Origin: Patescibacteria group bacterium
GTDB lineage: Bacteria > Acidobacteriota > Aminicenantia > UBA2199
NCBI GenBank assembly: GCA_035528155.1
Contig: DATKZA010000121.1
Location: 26,554 to 90,553 of the forward strand
Direction: 5' to 3'
Length of the DNA stretch: 64,000 nt
Part shown: piece after piece, positions 672 to 63,709 of the stretch
Position numbering within the stretch: the first letter of the stretch is position 1
Layout: each line of letters starts with the position of its first letter
The notes under the pieces: generated by a model
Seen by the model: the letters and a program-made list of their open reading frames with translations, nothing else
Database searches by the model: none
What the model was told of the DNA's origin: nothing
Translations under genes and position numbers: made by a program

Positions 672-775
672 ACTCAGTGAATAGTGATTGGTGATTGGTT
701 AGGAAAAAAGAAAAACTGAGTTTCTCGGGAATGCGGCTGCCAATCACGAATCACTATTTACCAATCACTACTTTG
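672..775. repeat. Intergenic repeat element with tandem CAATCAC/GTGATTG units; same family as repeats at 18946-19186 and 54830-55300
   Basis: actcagtgaatagtgattggtgattgg ... ccaatcacgaatcactatttaccaatcac resembles ctttaccaatcactaatcaccaatcacgaataacgaatcac at 55245-55290. Confidence 0.4.
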
Positions 776-18945: not shown

Positions 18946-19185
18946 GAAAAACTGAGTGGCGCGAGACAAATTCATATTTCTGATCCTACTCAGTAAACTC
19001 ACCCCCGTTCCCCCTCTCTTTTTTTAAGAGAGGGGGTCAAGAAGACTTCCTATTCCCCTTCTCTTGCTAAGAGAAGGGGTAGGGGATGAGTTTCACGCAT
19101 TCAGATTTTCCTGCAAATATTTCATTTTCGAGATTCTATTGTTTTTCTTATTTCTGACCCAACCTGAGGGCCTGACTTTCCTTGC
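18946..19185. repeat. Intergenic cluster of short palindromic repeat units (CCCCTCTCTT-loop-AAGAGAGGGG; GGTAGGGGATGAGTT...GCATTCAGA); same family as 54830-55300
   Basis: ccccctctctttttttaagagaggggg and ccccttctcttgctaagagaaggggtaggggatgagtttcacgcattcaga nearly match units at 54918-54965. Confidence 0.5.
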
Positions 19186-23603: not shown

Positions 23604-23806
23604 TTCATGGCAGTATCTGCCCGGGATCAATTCATCCTCCGGCCCCTTCTTTTGCGAAGAGATGGGAATCTAGGGGCACGGCGCGCCGTGCCCCTACGAT
23701 AGCCAAAGAGAAGGGTTGCGGGTGAGCTTGCTTTTAAGATTCCTATATGGGATTGGAATGAGTTTGCTTGGTTTACGAATCCCCGATTTAATGGTATATT
23801 TCACGA

Positions 23807-43312: not shown

Positions 43313-43465
43313 TTTGCCGGCCTCCTGAAAAAAACTGCTATCATAATAGGTAACAATCGCCGGCAACGATTCTTGCGGGACCGCAGAATTTATTTTCTTT
43401 TGCCTGCAGGGAAATGAAAAACCAGGCTGAAAAAGAAGCCTGGATGGCAGGGGAACCGTGGTGTC

Positions 43466-48292: not shown

Positions 48293-51200
48293 CTAGAAAG
48301 CGAACTTGATGCCCAGCGTGGCTTCCAGGGGGGGCAGGAAGCGGTAGCCCATGCCGAAGCGCGGGTCGAGCTGCTCCACTCTGGACTTGACGTCGACGCC
48401 ATCCAGGAGGTCCTGGTCGCTGATAAAGACGTCATCTCTGTTGTAAAAGCTGAGCAGGCGCTGCGCCGTCTTGGCGTCGGTCACGTTGCGGACGTTGAGT
48501 GAGAATTCCAGGTTGTTCTTGCCCAGTTTCAGCGCGTACTCGGCGTAGAAGTCGGCGGTGACGGTGAAGGGGGAGCGCAGGCCGGTGTCGAAGCGGTTGT
48601 AGGGGTAGTAGCCCTGCTGGCCGTTCACCTGGATCTCGGTCGACAGCGGCTGGCCGGAGTAGGCATTCACCACGCCGCCCAGGGTCACGCCAAAGGGGAA
48701 AACGTAGGAGGCATAGGCCTTGAGGTAGTGGGGGCGGTCGGTGTTCATCTTGCCGGCGATCGGCTTCATGTACTGGTCGTAGGAAGTCATCCACAGGTCG
48801 AAGTAGCGGTTGACGTTGGGATCGTTGCGCTCAGCCTCGTCGGAGCTGTTCAGGCCGGCGTAGTTGCCGGTCAGCTGGCTCCAGGTGTAGGAGAGGCCGC
48901 CGAGCCAGTTGTCGCTGAAGCGCTTTTCCAGGGAGAGGTTGACGGCATAGTAGTCGCGGGTGGCCTTCTGCGGAGCAGGGATCCCGGCGGGCAGAATGCC
49001 GTTCGAAATGGCGATATCGTACTGGTTCTTCACGTAGTCGCTGCCGGGATTGGCGATGAAATAGGTCTCGCCCTCGGGCATCAGGATGCCGATGTCATCG
49101 ATCGCCCACAGCAGCTTCTTGTTGACCAGGCGCACAGAAAGGGACAGGTCGTCGTTGATCTTCTTTTCCAGGCCGAAGGAAATTTCGCGCTGGGACATGG
49201 GCTTCATGTCGGGGTCGGTCTCGTTGATCGAGGGGATGCGCCAGTTCTTGTTGCCCAGGTACAGGCCGGGGAAATTGCCGTTGACGCCGATCTGGTCCCA
49301 GTTGGGGGTATCCAGCTCATAATATTCGCTGATCCAGACAAAGCCGCCGTAGGAGCCTTCGGGCAGGGCGAGCTTCATGCAGTCCTGGAAAATGCCGAAG
49401 GCGCCGAACACCTTCAGGCTGGAGTCGCCGAAGACGTCGTAGATGAAGCCCAGGCGGGGGGCCAGCTTGTCGCCCCAGCCGAAGTCCAGGGGAACGATGT
49501 CCTTGAATTCAGGCAGGGAGCTGAACGCCGGCACCTGTTCCTTTTCGGCGCGCAGCCCGAAGTTGAGGGTCAGCTTGTTGGCGATGGTCCAGGAATCCTG
49601 GAGGTAGAATGCCCAGCGGTTGGACCTGGCCTTGTCGATCATCTGGCCGAAGGGGGTGCGGTTCTCATAGTAGCCGTACTTGCCGAGCCAGCCGGCATCC
49701 ACCGGGCTGCCCGGGATCTGGTTGGGGAAGGCACGGCCGACATAGAGCCTGATAACCGGGACCGGGGAAGTGCCGTTGTAGTCGTCCATGATCTGGTTGT
49801 AGGCAAAGCCGGCCTTCCAGGAGTGCTCGCCGGCCAGGTTCATGAAGTAGTTGACGTCGATGTTGGCGCTGGTGCGCGTGTAGTTGGCCTTCGACAACTT
49901 GTAGAAAAGGCCCCAGGTGTAATTGGACCAGCCGTAATTGCGGACCTTGTCCTCCGGCCAGCCGTAGGCGGCTTCACCGCCCGCATTGTACGTGAAATGC
50001 TGATAGTAGATCCCCGGGGGGTCCATGACCGAGGCGTCGTTCTGGTTGTAGTAGCCGAAGCGGCCGGACACCTGCAGATTGTTGCCGATGGTATAATCCA
50101 GGTTGGCGGAGGTGGACCAGGTCGGGGAGTTCTCGCCCATCTGGTCATAGGTGAAGGTGGAGCTTCCGATCGTCTGCCAGTCGGGGAAGTTGGTATTGGG
50201 GTCATCGCCCGGCAGGCCGCCGCGCCATTGGTTGTTGTTGGCGATGAAGGAGGCCGACAGGCGCATATTCTTGATCGGCTCGGCCGACAGCTTGATCGAG
50301 CCGTTCATCCATGTGTCCTTGCGCTCGTACGAGGTCAGCGGGGCGCCGGCCACTTCGTCGAAGTTGACGTCGCGGTTGGTCTGGCGATACACAGGCAGGA
50401 AGGAGCCGAAGAACCACAGCTTGTCCTTGAGGATGTAGCCGCCCAGGCTGAGGCCGCCCTCCAGGCGTGAGAAATCCTGATTGCTGAAGTTTTCGTAATT
50501 GAAATACTGGGCTACGGTCGGATCGTCCGGCTTCAGGCGCAGCACGTCGCGCATCTTGCCGCGCAGGGCGCTGCCCTGGAAGTAGCCCATGACCTCGCCG
50601 TGGAACTGGTTGCCGCCCGAGCGCGTGACCACGTTGACCACGCCACCCATGGAGCCGCCGAACTCGGCCTGGTAGCCCGAGGCCTTGACCTGCACTTCGT
50701 CGATGAAGTCGAAGGCGGCCTGCATGCGCTGCTGGGCGCCGCGCACTTCGCCGGTCTCCATGCCGTCGACGTAGAAGACGTTCTCGGCGCCGCTGGCGCC
50801 GTCGACCGACAGGCCGCCGGTCATGGGCTCGTTGTAGACGCCGGGGACGGCCGTGACCAGGGTGCTGAAGTCGCGCCCCTTGGGCAGGTTGTTGAAGAGC
50901 TCCTTGGTCAGGGTCATGCCCTTGGCCGTGCTCTTGACGTCGATCAGCGGCATCTCCCCGGTGATGGTGATGACCTCGTTCAGGTTGCCGAGCTTCATCT
51001 CGATCTTCAGGCTGGCGGTCTGCTCGGCGACCAGCGGGATGTTTTCCCGCACCACGGTCTGGAACCCCTCCAGGGTGAACACCAGCTTGTAGGTGCCGGG
51101 CGTTAAATTCAGAAGCCTGAAGGTGCCGTTCTCGTCGGTGACCGCCGTCGCGTTGCCGACCAGCTTGGGGCTGGTGGCTTCGATGCTGACGCCGGGCACC

Positions 51201-51322
51201 AATGAACCGTCTTCAAGTTGTACCGTGCCGAAGATCTTGGCAGTGGTCTGCTGGGCGCTCAGCATTCCCGCGAGCAGGAGCACGCTGAATGCCAGCAGGG
51301 TGAACCTTTTGACAATACTCAT
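48293..51322 (-). CDS. TonB-dependent-like outer-membrane receptor with an N-terminal carboxypeptidase-regulatory-like domain (1009 aa; real start MSIVKRF at 51322)
   Basis: Signal peptide; TAKIFGTVQLEDGSLVPGVSIEATSPKLVGNATAVTDENGTFRL CarboxypepD_reg fold; plug-like region; 22-strand-scale barrel; C-terminal LGIKFAF; AAGGAGGA RBS. Confidence 0.8.
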   Translation of the reverse strand: MSIVKRFTLLAFSVLLLAGMLSAQQTTAKIFGTVQLEDGSLVPGVSIEATSPKLVGNATAVTDENGTFRLLNLTPGTYKLVFTLEGFQTVVRENIPLVAEQTASLKIEMKLGNLNEVITITGEMPLIDVKSTAKGMTLTKELFNNLPKGRDFSTLVTAVPGVYNEPMTGGLSVDGASGAENVFYVDGMETGEVRGAQQRMQAAFDFIDEVQVKASGYQAEFGGSMGGVVNVVTRSGGNQFHGEVMGYFQGSALRGKMRDVLRLKPDDPTVAQYFNYENFSNQDFSRLEGGLSLGGYILKDKLWFFGSFLPVYRQTNRDVNFDEVAGAPLTSYERKDTWMNGSIKLSAEPIKNMRLSASFIANNNQWRGGLPGDDPNTNFPDWQTIGSSTFTYDQMGENSPTWSTSANLDYTIGNNLQVSGRFGYYNQNDASVMDPPGIYYQHFTYNAGGEAAYGWPEDKVRNYGWSNYTWGLFYKLSKANYTRTSANIDVNYFMNLAGEHSWKAGFAYNQIMDDYNGTSPVPVIRLYVGRAFPNQIPGSPVDAGWLGKYGYYENRTPFGQMIDKARSNRWAFYLQDSWTIANKLTLNFGLRAEKEQVPAFSSLPEFKDIVPLDFGWGDKLAPRLGFIYDVFGDSSLKVFGAFGIFQDCMKLALPEGSYGGFVWISEYYELDTPNWDQIGVNGNFPGLYLGNKNWRIPSINETDPDMKPMSQREISFGLEKKINDDLSLSVRLVNKKLLWAIDDIGILMPEGETYFIANPGSDYVKNQYDIAISNGILPAGIPAPQKATRDYYAVNLSLEKRFSDNWLGGLSYTWSQLTGNYAGLNSSDEAERNDPNVNRYFDLWMTSYDQYMKPIAGKMNTDRPHYLKAYASYVFPFGVTLGGVVNAYSGQPLSTEIQVNGQQGYYPYNRFDTGLRSPFTVTADFYAEYALKLGKNNLEFSLNVRNVTDAKTAQRLLSFYNRDDVFISDQDLLDGVDVKSRVEQLDPRFGMGYRFLPPLEATLGIKFAF

Positions 51323-51366
51323 TTTGTTTGTCCTCCTTTTTTTATTTGACAAAACATCCAAGGTGT

Positions 51367-51382
51367 TGCAAGTTCCATGCCA
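51367..51382 (-). promoter_or_regulatory. Sigma-54 (-24/-12) promoter TGGCAT-GGAAC-TTGCA upstream of receptor gene 1
   Basis: Coding strand CTTGGCATGGAACTTGCAACACC; GG-N10-GC spacing exact; about 45 nt upstream of the ATG. Confidence 0.55.
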
Positions 51383-51689
51383 AGGGAAGCGGATGGTTTG
51401 AAAACAGCCTGGGGAATTTTTAGTGAACCTGAAAAACTTGAATGGAAGAGGGTTTGCCAGCCAGGACAGGTCGCGGAGAACATTCACCGCAAAGAGTCTT
51501 TTCTTTTTTATTGCCCCTAAAAAATACAAATTATTAATTTTTATTTCAAAAAACAATTAAAAACTCAATTTATTGAACTGCGGATAAGGACTGGCCGGAA
51601 AAATATTGCGCTGATTGAAAAAAAAACTCCTCAAAAAGCATTGGCCGGGCCTGGTTCAAGAAAAAGCGGGTTTGCCTTTTGCTGCTTTC

Positions 51690-51718
51690 TTGTCAAGCGG
51701 AACGGGTAGTGTTATAAT
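51690..51718 (+). promoter_or_regulatory. Sigma-70-like promoter TTGTCA-17 nt-TATAAT upstream of GWxTD gene 1
   Basis: TTGTCA 51690-51695, TATAAT 51713-51718; the ATG at 51725 lies 6 nt downstream (possible leaderless start). Confidence 0.4.
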
Positions 51719-51724
51719 AAATTA

Positions 51725-53815
51725 ATGATGATCAATTCAGTAAGTGCAGTGAGGCCGATGATGAAAAAATTGCTTGTGGTTTGCAGCGTTCTGATTTTTT
51801 GCTTTTCACTTCATGGCGAATCCGAGAAAGAACTCATAAAAAAACTTCCACCGCCACACCGCGTCTGGCTCACGGAAGAGGTGGTATACATTATTTCCTC
51901 TGTTGAAAAGGAAGTTTTCTTGCAGCTTGAATCCGACCGGGAACGCGACACCTTCATCAGCGCCTTCTGGAAACAGCGCAATCCCACTCCCAACCTGCCG
52001 GAAAACGAATTTAAAAAAGAGCATTACCGCCGCCTGGCCTATGTCAACAACTGGTTCGGCAAGGATTCCCCGGCCCCGGGCTGGCGCACCGACCAGGGCC
52101 GTATCTACATCACCCTGGGTGAAGCGCATTCGATCGAACGTTACGAAAGCGACAACGACCTGGTTCCTACCGTGGTCTGGTTCTACCAGGGCATGGCCGC
52201 CAAGGGACTTCCCGATTCCTTCAACGTGGTTTTTTTCAAGAAGGACGGCATGGGAGAATATGAGCTCTATTCTCCCGTCAAGTACGGTCCCCAAGCCTTG
52301 ATGCGAAACTTCGAGGGCGATGCCACTTCTTATGAGGCGGCCTATTATGCCCTGCTGGATATACAGCCCCAGCTGGCTACCGTCTCTCTCTCACTGATCA
52401 CCGGTGAACCGCTGGGCGTGAATCCCTCCATAGCCTCGGAGCTGCTGATCCGGCAGAAGATCCCTGAAACCCCGCAGCGGAATATCAAGAATATTTACGC
52501 CAGCAATTTCCTCAAGTTCAAAGGGCAGGTCGAGATCGACTACGCCGACAATTTCATGGAGAGCAGTTCCCAACTCAATGTTGTCCGCCACCCATCCGGG
52601 CACTATTTCATCCATTACCTCATCGAACCCAAGCGCCTCTCCTTTGAACAATACAAGGAGAAGTATTACACCACCCTGGAAATTTCCGGCAATATCTCCG
52701 ACCCTTCCGGAAAGATGCTCACCCAGATCTCACGCCGCATTCCCCTTGAATTGAGTGAAAATCAGATGCGCATGGTCAAGGACAAGCTTTTCAGTTTTCA
52801 GGACATGATCCCGGTCATCCCTGGAAGTTATCGCCTCACCATTTTCCTTAAAAACCTTACCACCAAGGAATTCACATCCCTGGAAAAGGATTTTGTCATC
52901 CCCGACCGGGAAAAATTGGCGATCTCGACGCTGCTGCTGGCCAACCGCAAGGCCGCCGCCGCGAGCAGTGTTGTCATCAAACCTTTTATTTTCGACGGCA
53001 GCCACCTTCTACCTTCGCCGCGCAACGATTTTCTCGCGGCCGACAATCTGGAACTCTTTTTTCAACTCCACGGCCTGAGCGGGGACTTGATACGGGCCGG
53101 CTCCCTGGAAATATCCCTTTTCCGCCGCGGCGAAAAAGTTTTCACCAAGGAACGGCTGCTCCGCGATCTTGGCTCTCTGCCCGACGTGCTGGAAACCCTG
53201 CCACTGAAGGGTCAATCCCCTGCTTACTACAATCTCAAGGTGTCCCTGCTTGACCAGAAAAAAAGCGAGATCGCGACCAAAAACGCCGATTTCTACATAA
53301 CGCCGCAACCCTCCCTGCCCCGACCCTGGGTCGTTTCCGTGCCCACAGCTGTCGGCGATTTCAGCGTCTTTCTTAACGAACTTGGACGCCAGTACGTTCA
53401 GAGCGGTGATCTTGATAAGGCCCGGCCCCTTCTGGAATCGGCTTTCCGGCAAAACCCCGACAGCGTCCGCTTCGGCGGCGATTATTGCCAACTGCTGCTG
53501 CAGAAAAAGGAATTCGCCAAGGTCAAGGCCCTGGCCCTGCCCCAGGTCAAGGAAAAATCCCGTTTTGAATTCGCCCTGCCCCTGGGCCATGCCTGCCAGG
53601 GCTTGAACGAATTCAACGACGCCATCGCTTTCTACGCGGACTTCATCACCCATTTCGGGGCCAACATCAATGTCTTCAACCAGATCGGCGAGTGTTATTT
53701 TCAGCTGGGCAATGCGGCGGAAGCCCTGAAGGCCTGGGAAAAATCATTGGAACTCAATCCCAAGCAGCCGCTCATCAGGGAAAAAGTCGCTGGTTTGCAG
53801 AAAACCGCCAAATGA
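51725..53815 (+). CDS. GWxTD-domain protein with C-terminal TPR-like repeats (alternative start MMKKLL at 51758)
   Basis: Signal peptide; FWKQRNPTP...EFKKEHYRRLAYVNNWF...GWRTDQGRIYITLGEA matches the GWxTD domain signature. Confidence 0.75.
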   Translation: MMINSVSAVRPMMKKLLVVCSVLIFCFSLHGESEKELIKKLPPPHRVWLTEEVVYIISSVEKEVFLQLESDRERDTFISAFWKQRNPTPNLPENEFKKEHYRRLAYVNNWFGKDSPAPGWRTDQGRIYITLGEAHSIERYESDNDLVPTVVWFYQGMAAKGLPDSFNVVFFKKDGMGEYELYSPVKYGPQALMRNFEGDATSYEAAYYALLDIQPQLATVSLSLITGEPLGVNPSIASELLIRQKIPETPQRNIKNIYASNFLKFKGQVEIDYADNFMESSSQLNVVRHPSGHYFIHYLIEPKRLSFEQYKEKYYTTLEISGNISDPSGKMLTQISRRIPLELSENQMRMVKDKLFSFQDMIPVIPGSYRLTIFLKNLTTKEFTSLEKDFVIPDREKLAISTLLLANRKAAAASSVVIKPFIFDGSHLLPSPRNDFLAADNLELFFQLHGLSGDLIRAGSLEISLFRRGEKVFTKERLLRDLGSLPDVLETLPLKGQSPAYYNLKVSLLDQKKSEIATKNADFYITPQPSLPRPWVVSVPTAVGDFSVFLNELGRQYVQSGDLDKARPLLESAFRQNPDSVRFGGDYCQLLLQKKEFAKVKALALPQVKEKSRFEFALPLGHACQGLNEFNDAIAFYADFITHFGANINVFNQIGECYFQLGNAAEALKAWEKSLELNPKQPLIREKVAGLQKTAK

Positions 53816-53867
53816 GACCGTCTAATATAATGCCGGAGACCGGCAATTCAATATGGAGGTTAGCAAG

Positions 53868-54827
53868 ATGAATAGAGATTACAAAAAGCCTTGGTGCGTC
53901 CTGGCCTGTGTCCTGGTCGTTTCTTCACTCACTTTTGCCCAGGCCGGCCGCGGCAAGGGGCGCCTGAGCGGCAACGTGGTCGACGAGAAGGGCGAACCCA
54001 TCGTTACTGCGGAAGTGAAGATCGAGTTCGAGAAAGGCGGCCTGGTGGACAAGACCACGGTCAACAAGAAGGGCGAATGGAGCTTCATCAGTCTGGGAAC
54101 GGGCCAGGCCATCGTCACCGCTTCGGCGGAAGAATTCCTGGACAGCAGCCTGAACATTCACGTGCAGCAGCTGGAACGCAACAAGTTCGTCACCCTGGTC
54201 CTGAAGGAGGACAAGGAAAAAAAGATCCGCCTCAAAGATGCGGGCGCGCTGGAGGAATTGGAAAAAGGCAACCAACTTTTCCAGGAACGCAAGTTCGACG
54301 AAGCCTTGCAGATCTATCAAACCTTCGCTAGCGAAAACCCCAAGGTTTACCAGATCTATTTCAATATCGGTGATGTCTACCGCGAGAAAGGTGAATTCGA
54401 CAAAGCCAACGAGCAGTACGCCATGGCCCAGGTCAAGGCCAAGGAAAAGGCTGATGTCGTCCTGCAGGCCAGGGCCCTGGCCTCGTTCGGCGAGATCTGC
54501 CTGAGGCAGGAAAAATTCAAGGAAGCCCAGGAATTCTTCACCCAGTCGATCGCTCTCAACCCCAAGGACGAGATCCTGGCCTACAATGTGGCCGAGATAT
54601 TTTTCGGACGCAACCAGACCGACAAAGCCATCGAGTATTACCTGCTGGCCATTCAGATAAAACCCGAGTGGAGCGAGCCCTACCTGAAATTGGGCTATGC
54701 CTATCTGAACAAAGGCGACATGGCCAAGGCGGTCGAATATTTGAACGGCTTCCTCACCCACGACCCCGAATCGCCCCAGGCGCCGGTGGTCCAAAGCCTG
54801 ATCGAATCCCTGACCAAGGCCAAATAA
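53868..54827 (+). CDS. Secreted TPR-repeat protein with an N-terminal carboxypeptidase-regulatory-like domain (alternative start 53853)
   Basis: Signal peptide; GRLSGNVVDEKGEPIVTAEVKIEFEKGG CarboxypepD_reg-like; then at least 5 TPR units; GGAGG RBS before 53868. Confidence 0.7.
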   Translation: MNRDYKKPWCVLACVLVVSSLTFAQAGRGKGRLSGNVVDEKGEPIVTAEVKIEFEKGGLVDKTTVNKKGEWSFISLGTGQAIVTASAEEFLDSSLNIHVQQLERNKFVTLVLKEDKEKKIRLKDAGALEELEKGNQLFQERKFDEALQIYQTFASENPKVYQIYFNIGDVYREKGEFDKANEQYAMAQVKAKEKADVVLQARALASFGEICLRQEKFKEAQEFFTQSIALNPKDEILAYNVAEIFFGRNQTDKAIEYYLLAIQIKPEWSEPYLKLGYAYLNKGDMAKAVEYLNGFLTHDPESPQAPVVQSLIESLTKAK

Positions 54828-54829
54828 CC

Positions 54830-55500
54830 AGTAGGGGTTTGATGAATCAAACCCCTACCTATTCACCCATCCCCTCTCTTTCAAAATGAGAGGGGAGTGC
54901 TGTTTTCCCCTTCTCTTCCCAAGAGAAGGGGGTAGGGGATGAGTTGGGAGCATTCAGAAAATTTGTTTGTTTTAGATATCTCTCAGAGATTGAGTTAGGA
55001 AGGAAAAACTCACCCCCATCCCCTCTCTTTTAAAATGAGAGGGGTTTTTTTTTCTCTCCCGGGTTCGGCATGGAGGGAGAACGGCTATTAATACTGATAT
55101 TATATATATGGAAACCCCTTTCGGAGCGAATTGAGTATTCTGGTGGTTTATCCAGGGACGTATACGGAATACTGAACTCACCCCCTGACCCCCTCTCTTC
55201 CCAAAGAGAGGGGGAAGTGCAATTATGGCTGATGAAGCCCTTTCTCTTTACCAATCACTAATCACCAATCACGAATAACGAATCACGAATTGCGGGGGGA
55301 TGAGTTAAGAGCACGATTATCCTGACATTAGAACAAGCCAGCACAAGTTGGATCATTCGTAACGCGTAACACGTAACGCGTGACGAGAAAGAGAAGATGT
55401 CGAGGTTTGAGGTTCGAAGTAGAAGAAAAGATCACAAGGAAATTCCAGATGTAGGGGTTTGATTCATCAAACCCTTGCAGTCAGGTAATATTCTTCTGAG
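54830..55500. repeat. Non-coding island packed with short palindromic repeat units and hairpins (REP/MITE-like family shared with 672-775 and 18946-19185)
   Basis: Units cccctctctttcaaaatgagagggg, ccccttctcttcccaagagaagggggtaggggatgagtt, cccctctcttttaaaatgagagggg, ccccctctcttcccaaagagaggggg; CAATCAC tandem repeats at 55245-55295; palindrome GTAGGGGTTTGATGAATCAAACCCCTAC at 54833 with an imperfect copy at 55446. Confidence 0.55.
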
Positions 55501-55740
55501 TCTGGATTGATATCTGCCTGGGGCAGGGAACGCAGATCGATCTGCGTTCCTTCAGAAGAAAACCTATCATGCTTTTGTTTAGAATATTAGAACTTGGAAT
55601 TTATTTGGAATTTTCTTAAGTACGGGAGGGTTTCACCCCCTGAAGGGGGCACGAACCCTCCCCTACATTCCTCTCCCCCCATACCCCTCTACCTCTCGAA
55701 CTATTCCCTCGTCCCTTACTGCCGGGGGGCGATCTACGGG

Positions 55741-55786
55741 CAAAAAAAAACCCCGCCCCCCGAAGGGGGCAGGGTCTTTTAAGTCC
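55741..55786 (-). terminator. Strong rho-independent terminator downstream of receptor gene 2 (bidirectional hairpin; U9 on minus, UCUUUU on plus)
   Basis: caaaaaaaaaccccgccccccgaagggggcagggtctttt; 25 nt past the gene 2 stop at 55812. Confidence 0.65.
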
Positions 55787-55811
55787 GCTAATTTAAACGA
55801 TTAGCCGACGT

Positions 55812-58800
55812 TTAGAAACTGAACTTGAAGCCCAGGCGGACAGCCAGCGGAGTTCCGCGGACGCCGTCGCCGTAGAACCACGTTTCCTTCTTGAACAGGG
55901 GATCCAGCTCGATGTCGGCGATCTCCCAGGTGGAGCTGTTGGCGATCTCTTCGTAGCTGGGGGCGGTGCCGCCGTTGTTGTAGATCTGGTAGATCCTCTG
56001 CGCGGTGCGGCTGTTGGTGACGTTGTCGACGTTGACGCTGATGTTGAGGTTGTTCTTGCCCAGTTTGAGGTTGTATTCGGCGTAGAGATTGGCGAACCAG
56101 AAGAAGGGGGTGCGGCCCAGGTCGCCGCGTCCGAAGGGCAGGTAGCCCTGGACGTCCATGGAGTACTCGGTCGAGACCGGGATGCCGCTCATGGCGTTGA
56201 TGACCGTACCGAAGGTCAGGCCCATGGGCAGGGAGTAGGAGCCGTACAGTTTGACGTAGTGGGTGCGGTCGCCGGGCATGACGCCGTCGATCTTGTTCAT
56301 CTCCCTGTCAAACGCCAGGTACCAGAGGTCGAAGTAGCGTTCGACGTTGGGGTTGCTGCGGCCCAATTCGTCGCCCGAGGCCAGGCCGGAGTAGTTGCCG
56401 GTCAGGCGGCTCCAGGTGTAGGAGATGCCGCCCATCCAGTTGTTGGAGAAACGCTTGTCGAGGGAGAGGTTGAGGGCGTAATACAGGCGCTTGGCTTTGG
56501 GGATGTCCGGGGCGTTCTGGGGGATCGATCCGGTCGCTTTTTGTTCAGCCCATCTCGCCTTGATGTAGTCGCTGCCGGGGTTGGTGGTGTAGTACATTTC
56601 GCCGTCGGGGGTCAAGATGCCGATGTCCTCGATGGCCCAGAGCAGGTTCTTGTTGACCAGGCGGGCGGTAAAGGCCAGGTCTTCCCTGAGTTTCTTTTCG
56701 ACACCGAGGGAGATTTCCATCTGGCTCATGGATTTCATGTCGGGGTCGGTGGTATCGAAGGAGGGCATGCGGAAGTCGAAGACGGCCAGAGGAGTGCCGT
56801 AGTCCCAGCCTTCCATGCCGATCTCGTCCCATTTGTAGGTGTTGAGCGGGTAGATGGCGCTCGACCATAAGAATCCACCGTAGGAGCCGGCGGCCATTTC
56901 GAGCTTCATGACGTCATAAAAGAGGCCGGCCGAACCGAAGACTTTGAGACTGGAGTCGCCATTGACGTCCCAGATGAAGCCTAAGCGCGGAGCCAGCTTG
57001 TCGCCAAAGCCCCACTCGATGGCCTTGACGTCTTTGTAGTCGGGGTTCGAGCTGTAGGAGGGGATGTATTCGGCTTCGGTGCGCACGCCAAAGTTGATGG
57101 TGACGCGGTTGGCGATGGTCCAGGAATCCTGGAGGTAGAGGGCCCAGCGGTTGGAATACGCTTTGTAATAAGCCCCGTATGGACCGGAATCTACGTTGCC
57201 GCGCGCGGAGTAGTAGCCGTAGGTACCGCGGCCATAGTTTGTACCGTATGCTTCATAATCCCTGTTCCAGCCAAACAAAATATAGGGAAAGGCCGCGGAG
57301 TTGTCATAATTCTGCCCCTGGCGCACGAACTGCACGCCGGCCTTCCAGGAGTGTTCGCCGCCCAGGTTGAGGAAGTAGGTCATGTCGGCGTTGACGCTCA
57401 TTTTTTCGTTCAGGGCCTTTTTGAGCGCATAGGGTACGGCCGATGCGCTTCTAAAACCAGCACTACGCTGGTACTCATCGGGCACGCCCGGCAATCCTCT
57501 GTTGGTGGTGCTGAAATAACCGCCGGGGGCTTCCGTCAAGAATCGCCAGTACGGTTCGGTCGGATCAACAAGAATACCACCTTGGTCGCGCTTGAAGTAG
57601 CCGGCGCGGGCGCTGACCATGAAGTTGTTGCCCGCGGTGAAGTCGGCCGAAAAGCTGCCGGAGAAGTTAGGATAGGAGTAACCATACTCGTCGTAGGAGA
57701 CCTTCGGGGCAGGGTTGCCGCCGAAGGCGTTGTTCAGATCGCCCTTGTAATTGTAGAAACTGTTGACCAAGGAAGCGGTCACGCGCAGGTTCTTGGCGGG
57801 CTGGGCGGTGAGCTTGCCTGAGAAGTTCCAATAGTTTTCGGTCCGTTTCCAGTCTTTGACCGTGCCGCCGCCGTAGTCGACTGTGCGGGTGTTGCTGTAG
57901 TAGACGGGCAGGAAGGAGCCGAAGAACCACAGCTTGTCCTTGATGAGGTAGCCGCCCAGGTTGAAGCCGCCTTCGAGGCGGCTGTCATTGTTGTCGCCGA
58001 TATAATCGACGTAATCGTAATACTTGGCTTTGCTGACGTCCACCTTGTCGTAGTCGAGGCGTTGACTGTAGGGCGCGCGCAGGGCGGCGCCGCTGTAGAA
58101 ACCCAGGATCTCGCCATGAAATTCGTTGCCGCCCGAGCGGGTGACGACGTTGATGACGCCGCCCAGCGAGCCGCCGAATTCGGCACTGTAACCGGAAGCC
58201 TTGACCTGGACCTCGTCGACGAAGTCGAAGGAGGCCGACTGGCCGTTGGCGCCGTTAACGATGTTGGTGACGTCGGTGCCGTCGATGTAGTACATGTTCT
58301 CCAGGCCCGAGGCGCCGTCGATCGAGGTGCCGCCGAGCATGGGCTCGTTGGAAACGCCGGGGATGGCGGTGATCAGCGAGTCGAAGTTGCGGCCCTTGGG
58401 CAGGGTCTGGAAGACCTCTTTGGTCAACGTCATGCCCTTGACCGTGCTCTTGACGTCGATCTGGGCGACCTGACCGGTGATGGTCACCATTTCCTCGATG
58501 TTGCCGAGTTTCATGGAAACCTTGATGCTGAGGGTCTGTTCCAAGCCTACCTGGACGCCGTCCCGAATGACGGTCTGGAATCCCTGCAGGGTAAACACCA
58601 GTTTGTACATACCCGGAGCCAGGTTAAAAAGCCTGAAGGTGCCGTTTTCGTCGCTGACCGCGGTGGTCTTGCCGACTAATTTCGGGCTGGTGGCCTCGAC
58701 GTTAACGCCGGGGACCAGCGAGCCGTCTTCAAGCTGCACTACGCCAAAGATCTTGGCCGTAGATGTCTGGGCTGTCAGCAGTCCTGCGCACAGGAGCAGG

Positions 58801-58838
58801 CTGATCGCCAGCACAGCGAACCTTTTGGCAAAATTCAT
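55812..58838 (-). CDS. TonB-dependent-like outer-membrane receptor with an N-terminal carboxypeptidase-regulatory-like domain; paralog of 48293-51322
   Basis: MNFAKRFAVLAISLLLCAGLLTAQTSTAKIFGVVQLEDGSLVPGVNVEATSPKLVGKTTAVSDENGTFRL is collinear with receptor 1 along the full length; ends GFKFSF. Confidence 0.8.
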   Translation of the reverse strand: MNFAKRFAVLAISLLLCAGLLTAQTSTAKIFGVVQLEDGSLVPGVNVEATSPKLVGKTTAVSDENGTFRLFNLAPGMYKLVFTLQGFQTVIRDGVQVGLEQTLSIKVSMKLGNIEEMVTITGQVAQIDVKSTVKGMTLTKEVFQTLPKGRNFDSLITAIPGVSNEPMLGGTSIDGASGLENMYYIDGTDVTNIVNGANGQSASFDFVDEVQVKASGYSAEFGGSLGGVINVVTRSGGNEFHGEILGFYSGAALRAPYSQRLDYDKVDVSKAKYYDYVDYIGDNNDSRLEGGFNLGGYLIKDKLWFFGSFLPVYYSNTRTVDYGGGTVKDWKRTENYWNFSGKLTAQPAKNLRVTASLVNSFYNYKGDLNNAFGGNPAPKVSYDEYGYSYPNFSGSFSADFTAGNNFMVSARAGYFKRDQGGILVDPTEPYWRFLTEAPGGYFSTTNRGLPGVPDEYQRSAGFRSASAVPYALKKALNEKMSVNADMTYFLNLGGEHSWKAGVQFVRQGQNYDNSAAFPYILFGWNRDYEAYGTNYGRGTYGYYSARGNVDSGPYGAYYKAYSNRWALYLQDSWTIANRVTINFGVRTEAEYIPSYSSNPDYKDVKAIEWGFGDKLAPRLGFIWDVNGDSSLKVFGSAGLFYDVMKLEMAAGSYGGFLWSSAIYPLNTYKWDEIGMEGWDYGTPLAVFDFRMPSFDTTDPDMKSMSQMEISLGVEKKLREDLAFTARLVNKNLLWAIEDIGILTPDGEMYYTTNPGSDYIKARWAEQKATGSIPQNAPDIPKAKRLYYALNLSLDKRFSNNWMGGISYTWSRLTGNYSGLASGDELGRSNPNVERYFDLWYLAFDREMNKIDGVMPGDRTHYVKLYGSYSLPMGLTFGTVINAMSGIPVSTEYSMDVQGYLPFGRGDLGRTPFFWFANLYAEYNLKLGKNNLNISVNVDNVTNSRTAQRIYQIYNNGGTAPSYEEIANSSTWEIADIELDPLFKKETWFYGDGVRGTPLAVRLGFKFSF

Positions 58839-58885
58839 TTGTTTGTCCTCCTTTTTAGATTTTTAGACAAATCACTAATAATATA

Positions 58886-58900
58886 GCAAGAACCATGCCA
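58886..58900 (-). promoter_or_regulatory. Sigma-54 (-24/-12) promoter TGGCAT-GGTTC-TTGCT upstream of receptor gene 2
   Basis: Coding strand CTTGGCATGGTTCTTGCTATAT; same spacing to the ATG as at gene 1; identical 22-nt AAAAAGGAGGACAAACAAAATG RBS region. Confidence 0.55.
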
Positions 58901-59187
58901 AGTTGACAAAGGGGGCGGCTATTGTCAATCGGAACGGAAACAATTTATAGAAGTGCGCTTATCAATGGTTTCGCCCGGGGGAGGAATGAAACCGTATCGC
59001 TGATAGCGAGAGTAGTTTCTCTGAAACCCGGAAAAATTCAAATAATTGAATAATTATTCAAAAAACAGAATTATGGTTGTTGGAAAACTGGGGGATTCCA
59101 CTTTTGGGTCATTGAAAAGCGGCTGGGTGAGTAGCAAAAAAGTGCCGACCGCCGCTTGGGGACGATCGGCACGATAAAAAACTGATT

Positions 59188-60225
59188 CTATAATACGATC
59201 TTGAAGGTGAATTCCTGCAAACCCTTGGTTTTGGAAACATTGTCCAGGATTTCGATCTCCAGGACATAAGCGCCGGGCTCGAGCAGCTTCTCTTTGCGTT
59301 CCGTTTCGACGCCTTTGTCGTTCTTGGTCACCTCGGTGTAGGCAAAGGCGATAGGCTGGCTGATGATGGGGCTGTTGACGGTCTGCGGGGCCATTTTGTT
59401 GACCTCCTTGCCGTCTTTCTTGAATTTGTAGGTGACCTGCAGATTCAGTGCCTTGGTAGCGCTGTCGGGTTTGCCGCCGAGGATAAAATAAAAAAGGTCC
59501 AGGTTCTCGTTGGTTTTGAATTCGTTTTTCAGGTCTGGCGCCAGCAGCAGGGTGTTGTAAACAAAGGAATTTTTATGGATGATCAATTTCGTTTCGGCAG
59601 CCTGCATCATTTGCAGGTCGCGCACCGAAAAAACCGGGGTAGTGACGAGCTTGTCATTGATGCTGGCGAAATCAGGGATGGAAAATTCAGTATAGCAGGC
59701 AGCGATCTTGGTGAAATCCGACGTGCTGACAGCCAGGGCCAGCAGATAGGCGCCGGCCGGGTAAATATCGCCGGCGATGGAGTAATAGTTCAGGGCATCG
59801 GGCTGGAACCCCTGCTGGTTTTCCTCCAGGTCGAAGCGAATGTTGCGTTCCTTGACGATCTCCCCGGGCACGCCGTTCTCCATGCGGTAGACGCGGATGA
59901 AAGCCATGTGATTGGCTTTGAGCACTCCGGGAGCTTCCGCTTGCGATGAAAAATCCAGGTCGGAGTTCTTCATCTGGAACAAGAAGACCGGGTAGGCATG
60001 GTTCTGCTGGGCGGGCAGGTACAAGGTCTTCAGGTAGGTCATGGGGATGTCGCTGCGGTTCAGCCGGGTTGAGACGCCGGCTGCAAACACGGCGGCAACC
60101 TCGGGGGAGATGAAGAACTGGCCCTGGTTCTTTTCAGTGGCGGGTTTGCTTTTTGCGGCCGCCAATTGCAGCGAGATCAACAGCAGTACGGTCAGCGTCG
60201 TAACAATAGAGTTCCTTGCTTTCAT
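59188..60225 (-). CDS. Hypothetical secreted protein (345 aa)
   Basis: Signal peptide MKARNSIVTTLTVLLLISLQLAAA; no recognisable domain; 17 nt downstream of GWxTD gene 2 (operon). Confidence 0.45.
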   Translation of the reverse strand: MKARNSIVTTLTVLLLISLQLAAAKSKPATEKNQGQFFISPEVAAVFAAGVSTRLNRSDIPMTYLKTLYLPAQQNHAYPVFLFQMKNSDLDFSSQAEAPGVLKANHMAFIRVYRMENGVPGEIVKERNIRFDLEENQQGFQPDALNYYSIAGDIYPAGAYLLALAVSTSDFTKIAACYTEFSIPDFASINDKLVTTPVFSVRDLQMMQAAETKLIIHKNSFVYNTLLLAPDLKNEFKTNENLDLFYFILGGKPDSATKALNLQVTYKFKKDGKEVNKMAPQTVNSPIISQPIAFAYTEVTKNDKGVETERKEKLLEPGAYVLEIEILDNVSKTKGLQEFTFKIVL

Positions 60226-60242
60226 TATATTTCTCCTATAAA

Positions 60243-61241
60243 TTACATCTTGATCTTGAGCTCTTTCTGGACCTGGCTTCCGTCGGCGGTATTTACCAGT
60301 GTTGTTTTGGCGGTGTACTGGCCGGGAGGGAGCTTGAGGGCGAATTCGATGATGAAAGTCTTGCCCAGCTGTTCCAACTTGTTCCTGTCAACGGAAACGG
60401 GATGCAGTTCTTCTTTTTCCAGGACTGTTTCGCCCGCTGCGTTGGCAACGAGCACCTTCAGTTTGATGCGGGTCTCCAGGGCTCCACTCTGCTCGTTCTG
60501 TACCAGGTTGGTTACGCGGTAGGGGACCTCAAACAGCAGCTTGGCCTGGCCGGGGGCGTCGGCTTGCAGGGTCAAAACGAAATCGAATTGGCGGATGTTG
60601 CGGGTGATGCCCGGCGGCTTGAGTCGCATCTGGGTGATGTTGATCATGCTCATTCTGCGGGCACTGCTTGGTTCAAGCTTGTATAAGCCTTCGCGCTCAT
60701 AATCGACGAAGATGATCGGGAAAAATCCGTAATACCATATCTCGACCGGCGGGTCGTAGAAACTGTAGCCGCTGGGGAAGACGTCGCGCCGCTCCGGCTC
60801 GCCCAGCAGGATGTAAATGCGGCCGCGGTCGCTCAGCCAGCCCGAATCGCCGCCGCGAAAAAGGTGGTTGGCGAAGTCGATGCGCCGGTAGTATTCTGTG
60901 CGGAATTCGTTTTCCGGTGTGGTGGGGTCGGGGTCCCTCTGCTTCCAGAATTCTTCGATGAACTGTTTCCTTTCATCGGTCTGGGTTCTCATGAAGATCT
61001 TTTTTTCCTTTTTGCTGATCAAATAGCGGACTTCTGAAAGGAATTGCCTGTCTTGGGGAGGCAGGGTGCGCACTGCCCGGCTGCTGCCGGAACAGGAAGC
61101 CAGCAGTTGGATAAGCAAAAAGATTCCCAAGCCGGGCCTGAGCGCCTTCCGTGCCCTTCCCTTCTGCGGCTGCGGCTGGAAATGGACAGGGGACAATCCG
61201 CCAGTAAATCCCAGCCATGAAAAAACATTTTCTTTTTTCAT
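60243..61241 (-). CDS. GWxTD-domain lipoprotein
   Basis: FWKQRDPDPTTPENEFRTEYYRRIDFANHLF...GWLSDRGRIYILLGEP matches the GWxTD signature; LLASC lipobox after an unusually long N-region. Confidence 0.7.
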   Translation of the reverse strand: MKKENVFSWLGFTGGLSPVHFQPQPQKGRARKALRPGLGIFLLIQLLASCSGSSRAVRTLPPQDRQFLSEVRYLISKKEKKIFMRTQTDERKQFIEEFWKQRDPDPTTPENEFRTEYYRRIDFANHLFRGGDSGWLSDRGRIYILLGEPERRDVFPSGYSFYDPPVEIWYYGFFPIIFVDYEREGLYKLEPSSARRMSMINITQMRLKPPGITRNIRQFDFVLTLQADAPGQAKLLFEVPYRVTNLVQNEQSGALETRIKLKVLVANAAGETVLEKEELHPVSVDRNKLEQLGKTFIIEFALKLPPGQYTAKTTLVNTADGSQVQKELKIKM

Positions 61242-61315
61242 TTGATTTTGCGATTGGATCGATTTTCAATTATATCATAATTTACATTTCTTCGCAAAGC
61301 GCTATAATGGCAATC

Positions 61316-63709
61316 ATGAAAAAGCATCTTTTGATCCTGTTTTTATTTGTAGCGGAAGCACTACTGGGTTCAACAGCGGAAAAACTGGAAACCGTGATCC
61401 AGAACAAGGACTGGCCGGCGCTGGCCGCTCGGTTTGGCGATGGCAGCCATCAACAGGCAGCCGTCTATTTTCAGGAATGCCAGAGGGTTGCCTTCAGTTC
61501 GCTGCGCCAGAACAACCTGATGTTTTTTGCCCGCTTTCGGGACTACGCCGAGATCGGCGAGATCACTTTCGCTTTCGAAAACGGCTTGTACCGGCAGTTG
61601 ACCCTGACGCGCAACATCAAGCCCCTGCATTTCATCCAGGCCTTTTCCCGTTATGACATATCCAACCGCACTCTGCGCATGGGCGACGCCGAGATCTTTT
61701 TTAAAAAGGGAGTCATCTACCAGGGGCTGCCCATGGACAACCTGTTCATTTTTTACGGGGAATGGACTTTCAGTGTCCGGCCTGAAGACAAAGAGGAGCG
61801 CTTGACCCTGCGCAGCCTGGAACGCAACGAGCAATTCAAAAAGGATGCCCAGGCCGGGGTATTCATTTCAAGCCGGCCCGAAATGGTCTCCGGCCTGCCC
61901 GATCCGCAAGCGGCGGGCGAACCGCAGGAGCAGGAAGCCAAGCTTCTTTATGAAATTTTTCAGAAAAAGTGGGGGATGCGCATCCCTTTTTTCGATGAAC
62001 TGTGGTATTTGCCTTTTGCCGCCGATTTCAACACCGCCATCTTCTTCCGCAAACCGGGAAAATCGTATTTCCGCTATATTTTCAATTCCGCTATTTCTCC
62101 CGACACCAGCCTGGTGCTATTACCGGAAAACAAGTTTTATTTGAATTACAATGCCGTACAAGGCCTTAAATTCACCACCCAGGCGGTCGATGAGCTGGAA
62201 AAACTTCAGTTGAACCTGTTCTACAACCCCAAGGTCCATTTTCTCTCCGGGACAGCCGTTCTGAATTTCAAGGAGCCTGCGAATATCAAGACGGTCAACC
62301 TTGCTCCCGGGCTGGTTGTCAAGGGCTACGGCAAGTCACAGCAGAATGAACTGCAGTTGTTCCAGCGCCAAGACACCTACTTCCTCCTGGGACCGGAACT
62401 GAATAAATTCGGTTTTTACTATGCCGGGAGCATCCAACCCAGCGATGATGACGAAGAACCGCCCCCTATCGGCATGAAGAACCGCGGGCGCGGCAACCGC
62501 GGTCGTGTTTACATTCTGAAACGCGACCAGGACTTCTATCCCAACCCGGGCCAGCATTTCTTCCCAAGCCGCGTCAAGGTTTCACTGCCGTTTCCCATGC
62601 ATTGCCTGGCCTCGGGGAGCCTGAGCTCGCAGCGGAAACTGGGAGACCACAACGAATTTGTATATGAAAGCCCAGGCACCAAGGGAGTCTCCCTGGTTTG
62701 TGGAGACTTCGAAAAATTGCTGACCGTCCCCAGTAAATTGCCAATCCAACTATACGGCCCGGCCAAGTTGAGGCTGAGGGATTTTTTCCCCGATAATGCG
62801 CTCCAGGGCTATTTTGATTTCCTGCTGGAAAAATTCGGCATGCTGGAGGTCCCTGAAGTGAACCTGTTGTTGCGCCGCTACCATGATTACGGCGGCTGGA
62901 GCAACCAGGGTTTTGTGATCTTCAATCTCCTTGATACCCGGGTCCTTGATGACGACCTGAGCGTTGTCCGGCGCATCCGCAGCGATAGTCCCGTGGTCTT
63001 CTCCGATGTCAACCGCGACAGCATGGTCCATGAATTGGCCCACCAGTGGTGGGGTGGCGTCATCTCCTGGAAATCCTATCAAGACATATGGTTGACCGAG
63101 GGGCTGGCCCAGTTCTCCACTCTGCTCTACCTGCAGGATTTCCTGGGTGAAAAACAGTTCCGCAGGGCGGTGGCCAGCACCAAAAGGTGGGTTTTTCGCA
63201 AAAATGACGCCGGACCGATCATCTACGGCCAGCGCATCGCCAATCTCAGTGAGGACCTGTATACCTACCAGAGCATCATCTACAACAAGGCGGCCCTGGT
63301 CTTTCTGATGCTCAGGGATATTCTGGGCGAGGATGAGCTGCTGGACCGCTTGCGCCAGGTCCTGGCCGATTTCAAGTACCAGAGTCTGAGCACAGCACGC
63401 TTCATTCGGCATATCAGCCAGGACAGCCAACGCCTGCGCAAGTTTTTCAAAGGCTGGATCTATACACGCCAGCTGCCGGAAGTCAGTTATCAGGTCAACT
63501 GTAGCGGAGCGAACGCCGAGATCACCTTCAGCCAAAAAAACAGCGATTTCGTTTTTCCGGTCAGCGTAAGCATTGCCACGGCCGACGGCAAGTACGTCCG
63601 CACCCTGATCGTCGAGGAAAAGGTCCAGAAATTCAAAATAGTTGAAAACACCCCCATCCAATCGATTGAAATCGATGCCGGGGTTGCACCTATTAAATTG
63701 CTGGATTAA
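61316..63709 (+). CDS. M1-family zinc metallopeptidase (aminopeptidase N-like); possibly leaderless (alternative start 61307)
   Basis: Signal peptide; HELAHQWWG then E at +19 (HEXXH-X18-E gluzincin motif); TTTACA-16-TATAAT promoter with the -10 ending 7 nt before the ATG at 61316. Confidence 0.8.
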   Translation: MKKHLLILFLFVAEALLGSTAEKLETVIQNKDWPALAARFGDGSHQQAAVYFQECQRVAFSSLRQNNLMFFARFRDYAEIGEITFAFENGLYRQLTLTRNIKPLHFIQAFSRYDISNRTLRMGDAEIFFKKGVIYQGLPMDNLFIFYGEWTFSVRPEDKEERLTLRSLERNEQFKKDAQAGVFISSRPEMVSGLPDPQAAGEPQEQEAKLLYEIFQKKWGMRIPFFDELWYLPFAADFNTAIFFRKPGKSYFRYIFNSAISPDTSLVLLPENKFYLNYNAVQGLKFTTQAVDELEKLQLNLFYNPKVHFLSGTAVLNFKEPANIKTVNLAPGLVVKGYGKSQQNELQLFQRQDTYFLLGPELNKFGFYYAGSIQPSDDDEEPPPIGMKNRGRGNRGRVYILKRDQDFYPNPGQHFFPSRVKVSLPFPMHCLASGSLSSQRKLGDHNEFVYESPGTKGVSLVCGDFEKLLTVPSKLPIQLYGPAKLRLRDFFPDNALQGYFDFLLEKFGMLEVPEVNLLLRRYHDYGGWSNQGFVIFNLLDTRVLDDDLSVVRRIRSDSPVVFSDVNRDSMVHELAHQWWGGVISWKSYQDIWLTEGLAQFSTLLYLQDFLGEKQFRRAVASTKRWVFRKNDAGPIIYGQRIANLSEDLYTYQSIIYNKAALVFLMLRDILGEDELLDRLRQVLADFKYQSLSTARFIRHISQDSQRLRKFFKGWIYTRQLPEVSYQVNCSGANAEITFSQKNSDFVFPVSVSIATADGKYVRTLIVEEKVQKFKIVENTPIQSIEIDAGVAPIKLLD

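Follow-up and report, generated by a model that had tools for sequence, protein, structure and literature searches.

An intergenic island of small palindromic repeats and the association of its main unit with DUF559 nuclease genes across more than 20 phyla

The DNA analysed is a stretch of 64,000 nucleotides (64 kb) of contig DATKZA010000121.1, here called the window, to which all coordinates refer unless another locus is named. Within it a 984-bp non-coding gap (54828-55811), here called the island, separates two convergent genes. The island was found to hold several kinds of small palindromic repeat, the main one being a composite element whose relatives in other genomes lie near or bracket genes for proteins of the DUF559 family. 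The genes on either side of the island were identified with Pfam as follows:

53853..54827, + strand, left flank: CarboxypepD_reg and TPR protein of 324 aa
55812..58838, - strand, right flank: CarboxypepD_reg/TonB-dependent-receptor-like outer-membrane barrel protein of 1008 aa

An identical copy of the TPR protein is present on other contigs, and its homologues are labelled Candidatus Aminicenantes. The window is itself contained in a 104-kb metagenome contig (ENA ERZ27256828).

A first-pass annotation, made from the sequence alone, had reported no credible open reading frame (ORF) at 54830-55810, and this was borne out. The four ORFs of the island (62-74 aa) matched no Pfam family even at E<=1, and the hidden Markov model of DUF559 gave no match or remnant anywhere in the window. 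A search of the whole window with Rfam 15 at gathering scores returned only a tRNA (22456-22540), while the best matches to the island at E<=10 were far below threshold, and no promoter-like site was found in the island. What the island does contain, aside from the copies of the composite element described further below, is the following:

54831..54858: perfect 28-nt palindrome GTAGGGGTTTGAT-GA-ATCAAACCCCTAC of the GTAG...CTAC type, 4 nt past the TPR stop codon
54871-54896, 54907-54931, 55020-55044 and 55189-55214: hairpins CCCYTCTCTT-loop-AAGAGARGGG, two perfect and two with one internal mismatch
55253..55290, + strand: heptamer tandem array AATCACG x5.4 (Tandem Repeats Finder, TRF)
55358..55385, + strand: heptamer tandem array CGTAACG x4 (TRF)
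55451..55478: second, degenerate GTAG-type palindrome, inverted with respect to that at 54831-54858
55527..55550: perfect 24-nt palindrome, GGAACGCAGATC followed directly by GATCTGCGTTCC
55620..55666: nested hairpin with outer arms GTACGGGAGGGTT and AACCCTCCCCTAC around an inner CCCCCTGAAGGGGG (fold analysis)
55741..55786, - strand: intrinsic terminator of the receptor gene, with a GC stem and T9 on the - strand and a weaker T-run on the + strand

Much of this inventory agrees with the first-pass annotation, which had counted at least four hairpin units (the four listed), tandem CAATCAC repeats (the AATCACG array) and a strong bidirectional terminator at 55741-55786, now also supported by a terminator scan and by folding. 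It had placed a perfect palindrome at 54833 with a degenerate copy at 55446, and a nested GC hairpin at 55623-55661; all three exist, with their coordinates corrected to those given above. The CGTAACG array and the 24-nt palindrome had gone unnoticed. The 28-nt palindrome folds as DNA with -12.3 kcal/mol (z -6.7) and its degenerate counterpart with a z-score of -4.3. Chance was excluded as the origin of the hairpins, since no match to the hairpin pattern is expected from shuffled sequence, the folds reach z-scores of -2.3 to -6.8 against shuffles and eight terminator-like sites were observed where 1.9 were expected. The sequence of the gap is fully accounted for by repeats and hairpins.

Alignment of the island units with a second locus of the window (18996-19092) revealed a single design. 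The composite element is a nested palindrome of 85-130 nt made of two unlike halves in inverted orientation, its parts in order being a head AACTCAYCCC, hairpin A (CCCTCTCTT/AAGAGAGGG), a spacer, hairpin B (CCCCTTCTCTT/AAGAGAAGGGG) and an inverted head (GGGGATGAGTT). Half alpha thus consists of the head AACTCACCC and hairpin A, and half beta of hairpin B and the head GGGGATGAGTT. The first-pass annotation had seen the hairpin units themselves, missing that they join into one element with inverted heads and that this element is tied to DUF559. A covariance model, R1, was built from 20 elements taken from other organisms only, and the whole window was searched with it without filters. The copies of the element in the window are:

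18996..19092, + strand: copy A, 66.3 bits, E 2e-15, the best-preserved in the window, between the convergent genes lpxB and recG
23629..23728, - strand: degenerate copy, 26.9 bits, E 1e-4
54860..54945, + strand: copy B, 61.5 bits, E 4e-14, complete
55007..55053, + strand: copy C, a half element with the head AACTCACCCCC and hairpin A (55020-55044), followed by T9
55175..55306, + strand: copy D, 17.3 bits at full length and 22.3 bits for 55175-55224

The scores of 66.3, 61.5, 26.9 and 22.3 bits (E 2e-15 to 2e-3) lie in the range of bona fide members. The island therefore holds one complete copy (B), one half copy (C) and one variant (D), with two further copies elsewhere in the window. The first-pass annotation had named uniqueness of the units to this locus as grounds for refuting it; the units are not unique, with copies at 18996 and 23629 and in hundreds of other genomes. 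Copy A folds as a three-way junction closed by its two heads (z -6.8). In copy B a degenerate 5' head is followed by hairpin A (54871-54896), hairpin B (54907-54931) and a perfect 3' head GGGGATGAGTT (54935-54945). Copy C, marginal under R1 (13.3 bits at 55007-55089), resembles an intrinsic terminator on the + strand in the terminator scan. Copy D is composed of a head, hairpin A (55189-55214), the left arm of hairpin B, the heptamer array in place of the right arm and a 3' head GGGGATGAGTT (55296-55306), and its fold closes head to head (z -5.4). The inverted heads AACTCAYCCC...GGGRTGAGTT are thus present in A and D, with only the 5' head in C and a degenerate 5' head in B, while both hairpins occur in A and B and hairpin A alone in C and D. 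The spacer of the copy at 23629-23728 contains a GTAG-type palindrome, CTAGGGGCACGGCGCGCCGTGCCCCTAC (23669-23696), from which it follows that small palindromes insert into these elements. It should also be noted that hairpin A of copies B and C (54885-54890 and 55034-55039) reads AAAATGAGAGGGG in the window and AAAAAGAGAGGGG in a strain, L003, whose TPR protein is identical to that of the window; this parallel difference suggests gene conversion between the copies.

The island was found to be identical base for base in independent assemblies of other samples (L203), and contigs from three independent assemblies (L002, L203 and L003) stop within its repeats, at 54839, 54890 and approximately 55048. 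Since the independent assemblies agree and contigs end inside the repeats, the island sequence is real and not an assembly artefact, and is repetitive in its own genome. Palindromic repeats of this sort fragment metagenome assemblies.

One genome per species was scanned with the exact pattern AACTCACCCC-N2-8-CCCCTCTCTT (20 bases), which matched more than 118 stretches. The matches listed come from metagenome-assembled genomes (MAGs) of more than 20 phyla, among them Bacteroidota, Ignavibacteria, Calditrichota, Zixibacteria, Latescibacterota, Aminicenantes, many Patescibacteria, Margulisiibacteriota, Sericytochromatia, Leptospirales, Bacillota, Gammaproteobacteria and others. The architecture of the element is constant among these matches, with loops and spacers differing, and there are several dispersed copies per genome, such as those at 0.81, 1.46, 1.70 and 3.19 Mb of OY762937.1. 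Most are orphans, in that 110 of the 118 pattern-selected loci had no DUF559 gene in the stretch fetched (<=8 kb). The ends of the element are sharp, with conservation stopping at A(-1) in 107 of 119 copies and at T(+1) in 104, and no direct repeat of 2-5 nt was found above expectation as a target-site duplication in these 119 copies.

The two ends also differ from one another. In a second set, selected through DUF559, 50 of 77 elements pair a C-type head and hairpin A with a T-type head and hairpin B. Given two such unlike inverted half-sites, the outer stem carries a T:G mismatch on one strand. A compensatory double change was seen in only one of 25 stem pairs, the stems being conserved in sequence, and this suggests that they are recognised by a protein rather than selected for structure alone, although the covariation is too sparse to favour or exclude an RNA role. 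Other small palindromes are nested in the loops of the elements. Separately, an IS110-family transposase gene and its element were found inserted in hairpin B at one locus (L094 933-2012), while at a homologous Bacteroidales locus (L072 5378-5541) the two-hairpin element is intact; IS110 elements use the main repeat as a target, as they do with repetitive extragenic palindromic (REP) sequences.

When all ORFs of the 118 loci were clustered, DUF559 (PF04480) was the only protein family to recur beside the element. Eight DUF559 genes were identified among the matches listed (Pfam E 1e-24 to 1e-32), seven of them with an element head within 400 nt and the eighth (L092) with a variant hairpin. Four proteins of the cluster of flanked genes were submitted to Pfam and gave PF04480 only, and a frequent layout in these loci was head-hairpin, gene, hairpin-head. 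A reciprocal test was done with 80 metagenome loci chosen solely by DUF559 protein similarity, of which 73 could be assessed. The hairpin motif was present within 200 nt of the DUF559 gene in 63 of the 73 and on both sides of it in 35. The same motif was found in one of 86 control windows at 700-915 nt, in 2 of 348 windows lying beyond 450 nt, in 2 of 23 mostly intergenic windows and in none of 3060 shuffles. The DUF559 relatives sit mostly on contigs of 0.5-5 kb.

Three gene layouts were recognised, in which the gene lies within one element, between two complete elements in direct orientation, or downstream of a single element. The first of these (type I), with the gene in the spacer between the two hairpins of one element, is seen in L004, L123, L142, L178 and L201. 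The upstream-only layout is exemplified by L220, on a 3.6-Mb contig, where the element (R1 81.4 bits) ends 13 nt before the start codon. In the same locus a short Y1_Tnp gene (IS200/RAYT-type, RAYT being the REP-associated tyrosine transposase) lies at 7303-7617, 2.4 kb from the DUF559 gene, which may be coincidence. The position of the DUF559 gene beside a Ser/Thr kinase gene is kept across loci only ~75% identical in DNA, and in this stability it resembles RAYT genes, which stay in place. Cultured cyanobacteria provide the same design in another sequence, their DUF559 genes being flanked by head-hairpin-spacer-hairpin-head repeats of the form GCCCCTAAATCCCC..GGGGA ... CCCCC..GGGGGCTAGGGGGC; the cases are Picosynechococcus PCC 7002 plasmid pAQ6 21037-21402 (L214) and a plasmid of Pseudanabaena ABRG5-3 (L216). 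As a side observation to which no statistics are attached, C-tract/G-tract hairpins or perfect 17-nt hairpins adjoin DUF559 genes in E. coli (L217), N. gonorrhoeae (L218) and Deinococcus (L219).

Long direct duplications of host DNA (19-91 nt) enclose the entire cassette of element, DUF559 gene and element in 6-7 of the 49 loci that could be assessed. These include L173 (1303-1393 and 1916-2006, 91 nt, 100% identical) and L177 (1317-1360 and 1961-2004, 44 nt), with others in L130, L131, L132 and L151, and 400 control pairings scored far lower. The duplicated stretch of L173 is the 3' end of the upstream gene, each copy having a different C-terminal tail. Such bracketing shows that the gene cassette itself has moved; the duplications look like the product of circle integration by homology, or like att-like sites.

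The protein encoded by these genes has the features expected of a nuclease. The DUF559 profile matched PDB 3HRL (E 2e-27) and, with less significance, 3R3P, the catalytic domain of the homing endonuclease I-Bth0305I (E 0.003). Vsr, DUF559 and 3R3P fall in one clade of a survey of PD-(D/E)XK proteins (PMC3424549), and catalytic residues E-D-x-H-D have been described for the Vsr/EDxHD clade (PMC3384342). In an alignment of eight DUF559 sequences (A3), D74, G75, H78 and D85 are invariant and the E of E-D-x-H-D is nearly so. Because these residues are kept and the profile matches 3HRL and 3R3P, it is a reasonable inference that DUF559 is an active DNA-nicking or DNA-cutting enzyme.

The copies in the window belong to a repeat family that spans more than 20 phyla and lies near or brackets DUF559 genes. 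They are probably orphan, non-autonomous selfish repeats similar to REPINs (paired REP sequences), whose multiplication would depend on a DUF559 nuclease acting in trans from another part of the genome. We infer the mobilisation itself, in which DUF559 would bind or nick the element and this action would lead to its copying, a dependence that may be likened to that of REPINs on the RAYT transposase. A more specific version takes account of the systematic difference between the heads (AACTCA-C and AACTCA-T): the outer stem, once extruded, would contain a T:G mismatch at which the nuclease could make the nick that starts copying. A T:G mismatch is the type of substrate on which Vsr acts. Small selfish repeats would have gathered in the island as a harmless site past two convergent genes. 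It is suspected that repeats are retained at such sites for the reason that they cause no damage, and that the hairpins of the element double as terminators, in which case copy C with its T9 may replace the terminator found in relatives immediately behind the TPR gene. It is tentatively proposed, though we consider it doubtful at this stage, that DUF559 proteins in general are the trans-acting enzymes of an unrecognised REPIN-like class of mobile repeats across bacteria, that is, a second and independent arrangement of nuclease and palindromic repeat, with a Vsr-type enzyme instead of an HUH one.

No description of the association between the repeat and DUF559 was found in titles and abstracts of the literature, although a prior description is possible as coverage of subscription papers was incomplete. 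Titles and abstracts on DUF559 contained nothing on repeats or mobility, those combining Vsr-like proteins with REP, miniature inverted-repeat transposable elements (MITEs) or homing, and those on small dispersed repeats, contained nothing pertinent, and searches with the stem and head sequences gave chance matches only (primers and aptamers).

Several observations weigh against multiplication in trans by DUF559. The link between DUF559 and the repeat is one of genomic association, drawn nearly entirely from MAGs and metagenome contigs, and around 14% of the DUF559 loci are without the motif as defined, several of these having variant stems which the pattern misses (CCTCACC/CCTCTCC and CCCTCCCT). 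There is no DUF559 gene in the 64-kb window, the copies there being orphans, and the DUF559 relatives carry labels such as Zixibacteria and Bacteroidota, with no Aminicenantes label among them. The unit is also near-identical across phyla, unlike ordinary REPs, which may point to a function at the level of the host or to frequent horizontal transfer. Furthermore, neither a clean empty site nor a fresh insertion was seen for the main unit; in L084 (~77% DNA identity) a 90%-identical copy lies at a different place, and the intergenic DNA cannot be aligned and gives no clean empty site. Finally, the association could run in reverse, with the nuclease gene homing into repeats that were already present.

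Under this reverse arrangement DUF559 would be a free-standing homing endonuclease gene with the palindromic unit as its recognition site, the repeats would have spread by other means and the island would be a set of empty targets. The similarity to I-Bth0305I is in keeping with this, as is the inclusion of free-standing genes in the EDxHD family; the type I layout places the gene exactly in the spacer between the two hairpins of one element, and the host duplications around cassettes could also be read in this way. A split target, however, is not what is seen at the many loci where two complete elements enclose the gene, nor at L220 with its element only upstream. The position of the gene is kept across diverged genomes, and the origin of hundreds of sharp-ended orphan copies would be left unexplained. 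Homing is for these reasons regarded as unlikely.

The orthologous loci bear on whether the hairpins serve the host. Such loci were found through homologues of the TPR protein (74-95% identity), and their intergenic regions range from 180 to 989 nt, the shortest being 180-224 nt. The only segment common to all of them is the receptor terminator at 55741-55786, which is 86-94% identical in L209, L210, L212 and L213 and is also present in L207. Otherwise their content differs:

L213: a pair of two-hairpin elements in tandem, oriented the opposite way
L212: heptamer arrays and other hairpins
L209: a short region with other hairpins and no R1 match
L210: 224 nt, with almost nothing

In L207, the closest of these with 95% protein identity, the same island is present, 90.1% identical and with 95 gap columns, and the indels fall at repeat units. 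They comprise two heptamers (the AATCACG array having two units fewer in L207), the 16 nt of the inner GC hairpin at 55633, a 23-nt extra head, 8 nt of copy C, whose hairpin is partly deleted, and the central 4 nt of the 24-nt palindrome, which in L207 is 4 nt shorter and imperfect. The inner hairpin of 55620-55666 is taken as an indel because it is missing there. The 28-nt palindrome at 54831-54858 is retained in L207, but strain L003 lacks it and carries an intact element head at that point. Such a pattern is in keeping with repeat DNA that is neutral and prone to indels, and not with a conserved RNA gene. The suggestion in the first-pass annotation of a decayed mobile-element landing pad is accordingly half right: a landing pad is apparent, as a hypervariable spot with at least four kinds of repeat in which relatives differ, whereas "decayed" does not suit an island whose copy B scores 61.5 bits.

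It may still be asked whether the hairpins are abundant because they are selected by the host, as terminators, stabilisers of mRNA 3' ends, sites of protein binding or small RNAs (one or several). The genes on either side of the island converge, a typical setting for REP-like sequences (PMC3733652), and both copy C with T9 and the stem at 55741-55786 score as terminators. A canonical terminator, GCCGGCTGC...GCAGCCGGC with a T-run, follows the TPR gene directly in L209, L212 and L213 and is absent from the window and from L207; in the window the first hairpin with a T-run after that gene is copy C (55022-55053). Vsr-like RAP/FASTK domains, moreover, are reported to act on RNA (PMC11879112). Against this, the island matches no Rfam family and has no promoter-like site, its content is not conserved among the orthologous loci, its stems are conserved in sequence with a compensatory change in only one of 25 pairs, and its copies are truncated, nested and interrupted. 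The structured small RNAs that had been suggested on first reading find no support here either, as only the terminator is conserved past the 95%-identical relative. Selection for a host function is therefore considered quite improbable as the explanation of the repeats.

An ordinary MITE, that is, an internally deleted insertion sequence (IS) of the DDE-transposase type sharing terminal inverted repeats of 10-11 nt, would account for the inverted heads, small size, many copies and intergenic positions. It would not account for the lack of a target-site duplication in 119 copies, nor for the finding that among 118 loci only DUF559, and never a DDE transposase, was present between or beside the ends; the lone transposase, of the IS110 family (L094), is an insertion into the element and not its parent. 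As the tests for target duplication and for a parent IS were both negative, the element is not regarded as a DDE-type MITE, and this origin is very improbable. A decayed or frameshifted protein-coding gene, which the length of the gap for a compact genome and the ORFs of 62-74 aa might suggest, is scarcely credible given the lack of any Pfam match at E<=1 or DUF559 remnant, the relatives with only 180-224 nt at the locus and a sequence that is accounted for by repeats and hairpins.

Aside from the composite element, the heptamer arrays recur in the window, where GTGATTG x2 and CAATCAC x3 are arranged as inverted arrays at 684..770 and form one long hairpin (z -4.3). Over ~1 Mb of related loci, tandem repeats had a period of 7 more often than any other, in 156 of 700 TRF rows. 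The arrays were considered as a possible part of the element and rejected in this role, with 15 observed within 60 nt of heads where 8.3 were expected and the random maximum was 23; they are a separate, co-occurring class of repeat. Palindromes with GTAG/CTAC ends number ~5 in the 64 kb (23669, 42480, 54831, 55451 and 55620), with differing inner stems. The one at 42480-42524 is a 45-nt GTAGGGG...CCCCTAC palindrome between the convergent ORFs 40852-42456 (+) and 42521-43366 (-). With regard to the neighbouring genes, two paralogous modules stand side by side at 48293-63709, each with a CarboxypepD_reg/TonB-like receptor, a GWxTD-domain protein and a TPR protein. The receptors (48293-51556 and 55812-58838) are ~72-76% identical in DNA over parts, and the GWxTD proteins are encoded at 51725-53815 and 60243-61241.

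The odd 1-kb gap is thus explained as repeat DNA and not as a missed gene or small RNA locus, which also accounts for the assembly breaks within it. In MAGs from sediment, groundwater and soil the main hairpin unit ranks with the commonest non-coding repeats, and it yields spurious ORFs and fragmented assemblies. The link to DUF559 offers a concrete function, open to testing, for a huge domain that has had none assigned and, if true, would place a second repeat-nuclease partnership, spanning more than 20 phyla, beside that of REPIN and RAYT. The same design is available in a cultured and genetically tractable organism, Picosynechococcus PCC 7002, on pAQ6 (gene SYNPCC7002_RS14775).

The minor repeats of the island may be compared with two known kinds. 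Cyanobacteria reportedly have heptanucleotide tandem repeats termed STRR (short tandemly repeated repetitive sequences; Mazel et al. 1990 are said to have described them), which the heptamer arrays resemble in being tandem 7-nt units, intergenic and variable in copy number. The heptamer sequences of the island are different, the host is not a cyanobacterium and there is a weak proximity to the DUF559-type element. The palindromes at 54831 and 55451 resemble GTAG-tagged REPs (PMC3733652) in their 5' GTAG, GC-richness, length of 20-40 nt, opposite orientation and location just downstream of a gene. They differ in that GTAG is paired with CTAC instead of unpaired, and in the 592 nt between the two copies.

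Bacterial MITEs such as Correia/NEMIS, Nezha and Chunjie measure ~100 nt and have terminal inverted repeats, internal secondary structure, numerous copies between genes and, in some cases, activity as terminators. The composite element shares with them its length of ~100 nt, terminal inverted repeats, internal structure and many intergenic copies, and it differs in having neither a target-site duplication nor a DDE parent and in that its cargo version carries a nuclease of another superfamily. EDxHD (Vsr-like) homing endonucleases, such as I-Bth0305I (PMC3239194, PMC3384342), share the nuclease clade of DUF559 and a selfish-DNA context, and free-standing members are known. These enzymes, unlike DUF559, carry an extra DNA-binding region and are found in phage introns or inteins targeting protein genes, whereas DUF559 as described here is a ~120-aa single-domain protein encoded in or beside a multi-copy palindromic repeat of bacterial chromosomes.

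The closest comparison is with REP/REPIN elements and their RAYT transposase (Nunvar 2010; Bertels & Rainey 2011, PMC3116915; Di Nocera 2013, PMC3733652). The protein of the main unit is a Vsr-like PD-(D/E)XK protein, DUF559, where that of REPs is an HUH tyrosine transposase, and its head is AACTCAYCCC in place of an unpaired GTAG or CGTC tag. The unit forms one sequence family across more than 20 phyla, while REP families are usually lineage-specific, and it occurs in three gene layouts (gene inside one element, between two complete ones, or with one upstream). As the tests for the tag and for a Y1 transposase gene flanked by the repeats were negative, the unit is not a member of the REP/RAYT family. 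It is REPIN-like in its working principle: both systems consist of short imperfect palindromes with a conserved head, in inverted pairs that form a larger hairpin, with many orphan intergenic copies, especially past convergent genes, and a small nuclease gene flanked by copies. Both also lack target duplications, keep the position of the gene and receive insertions of other small repeats and IS110-type elements.

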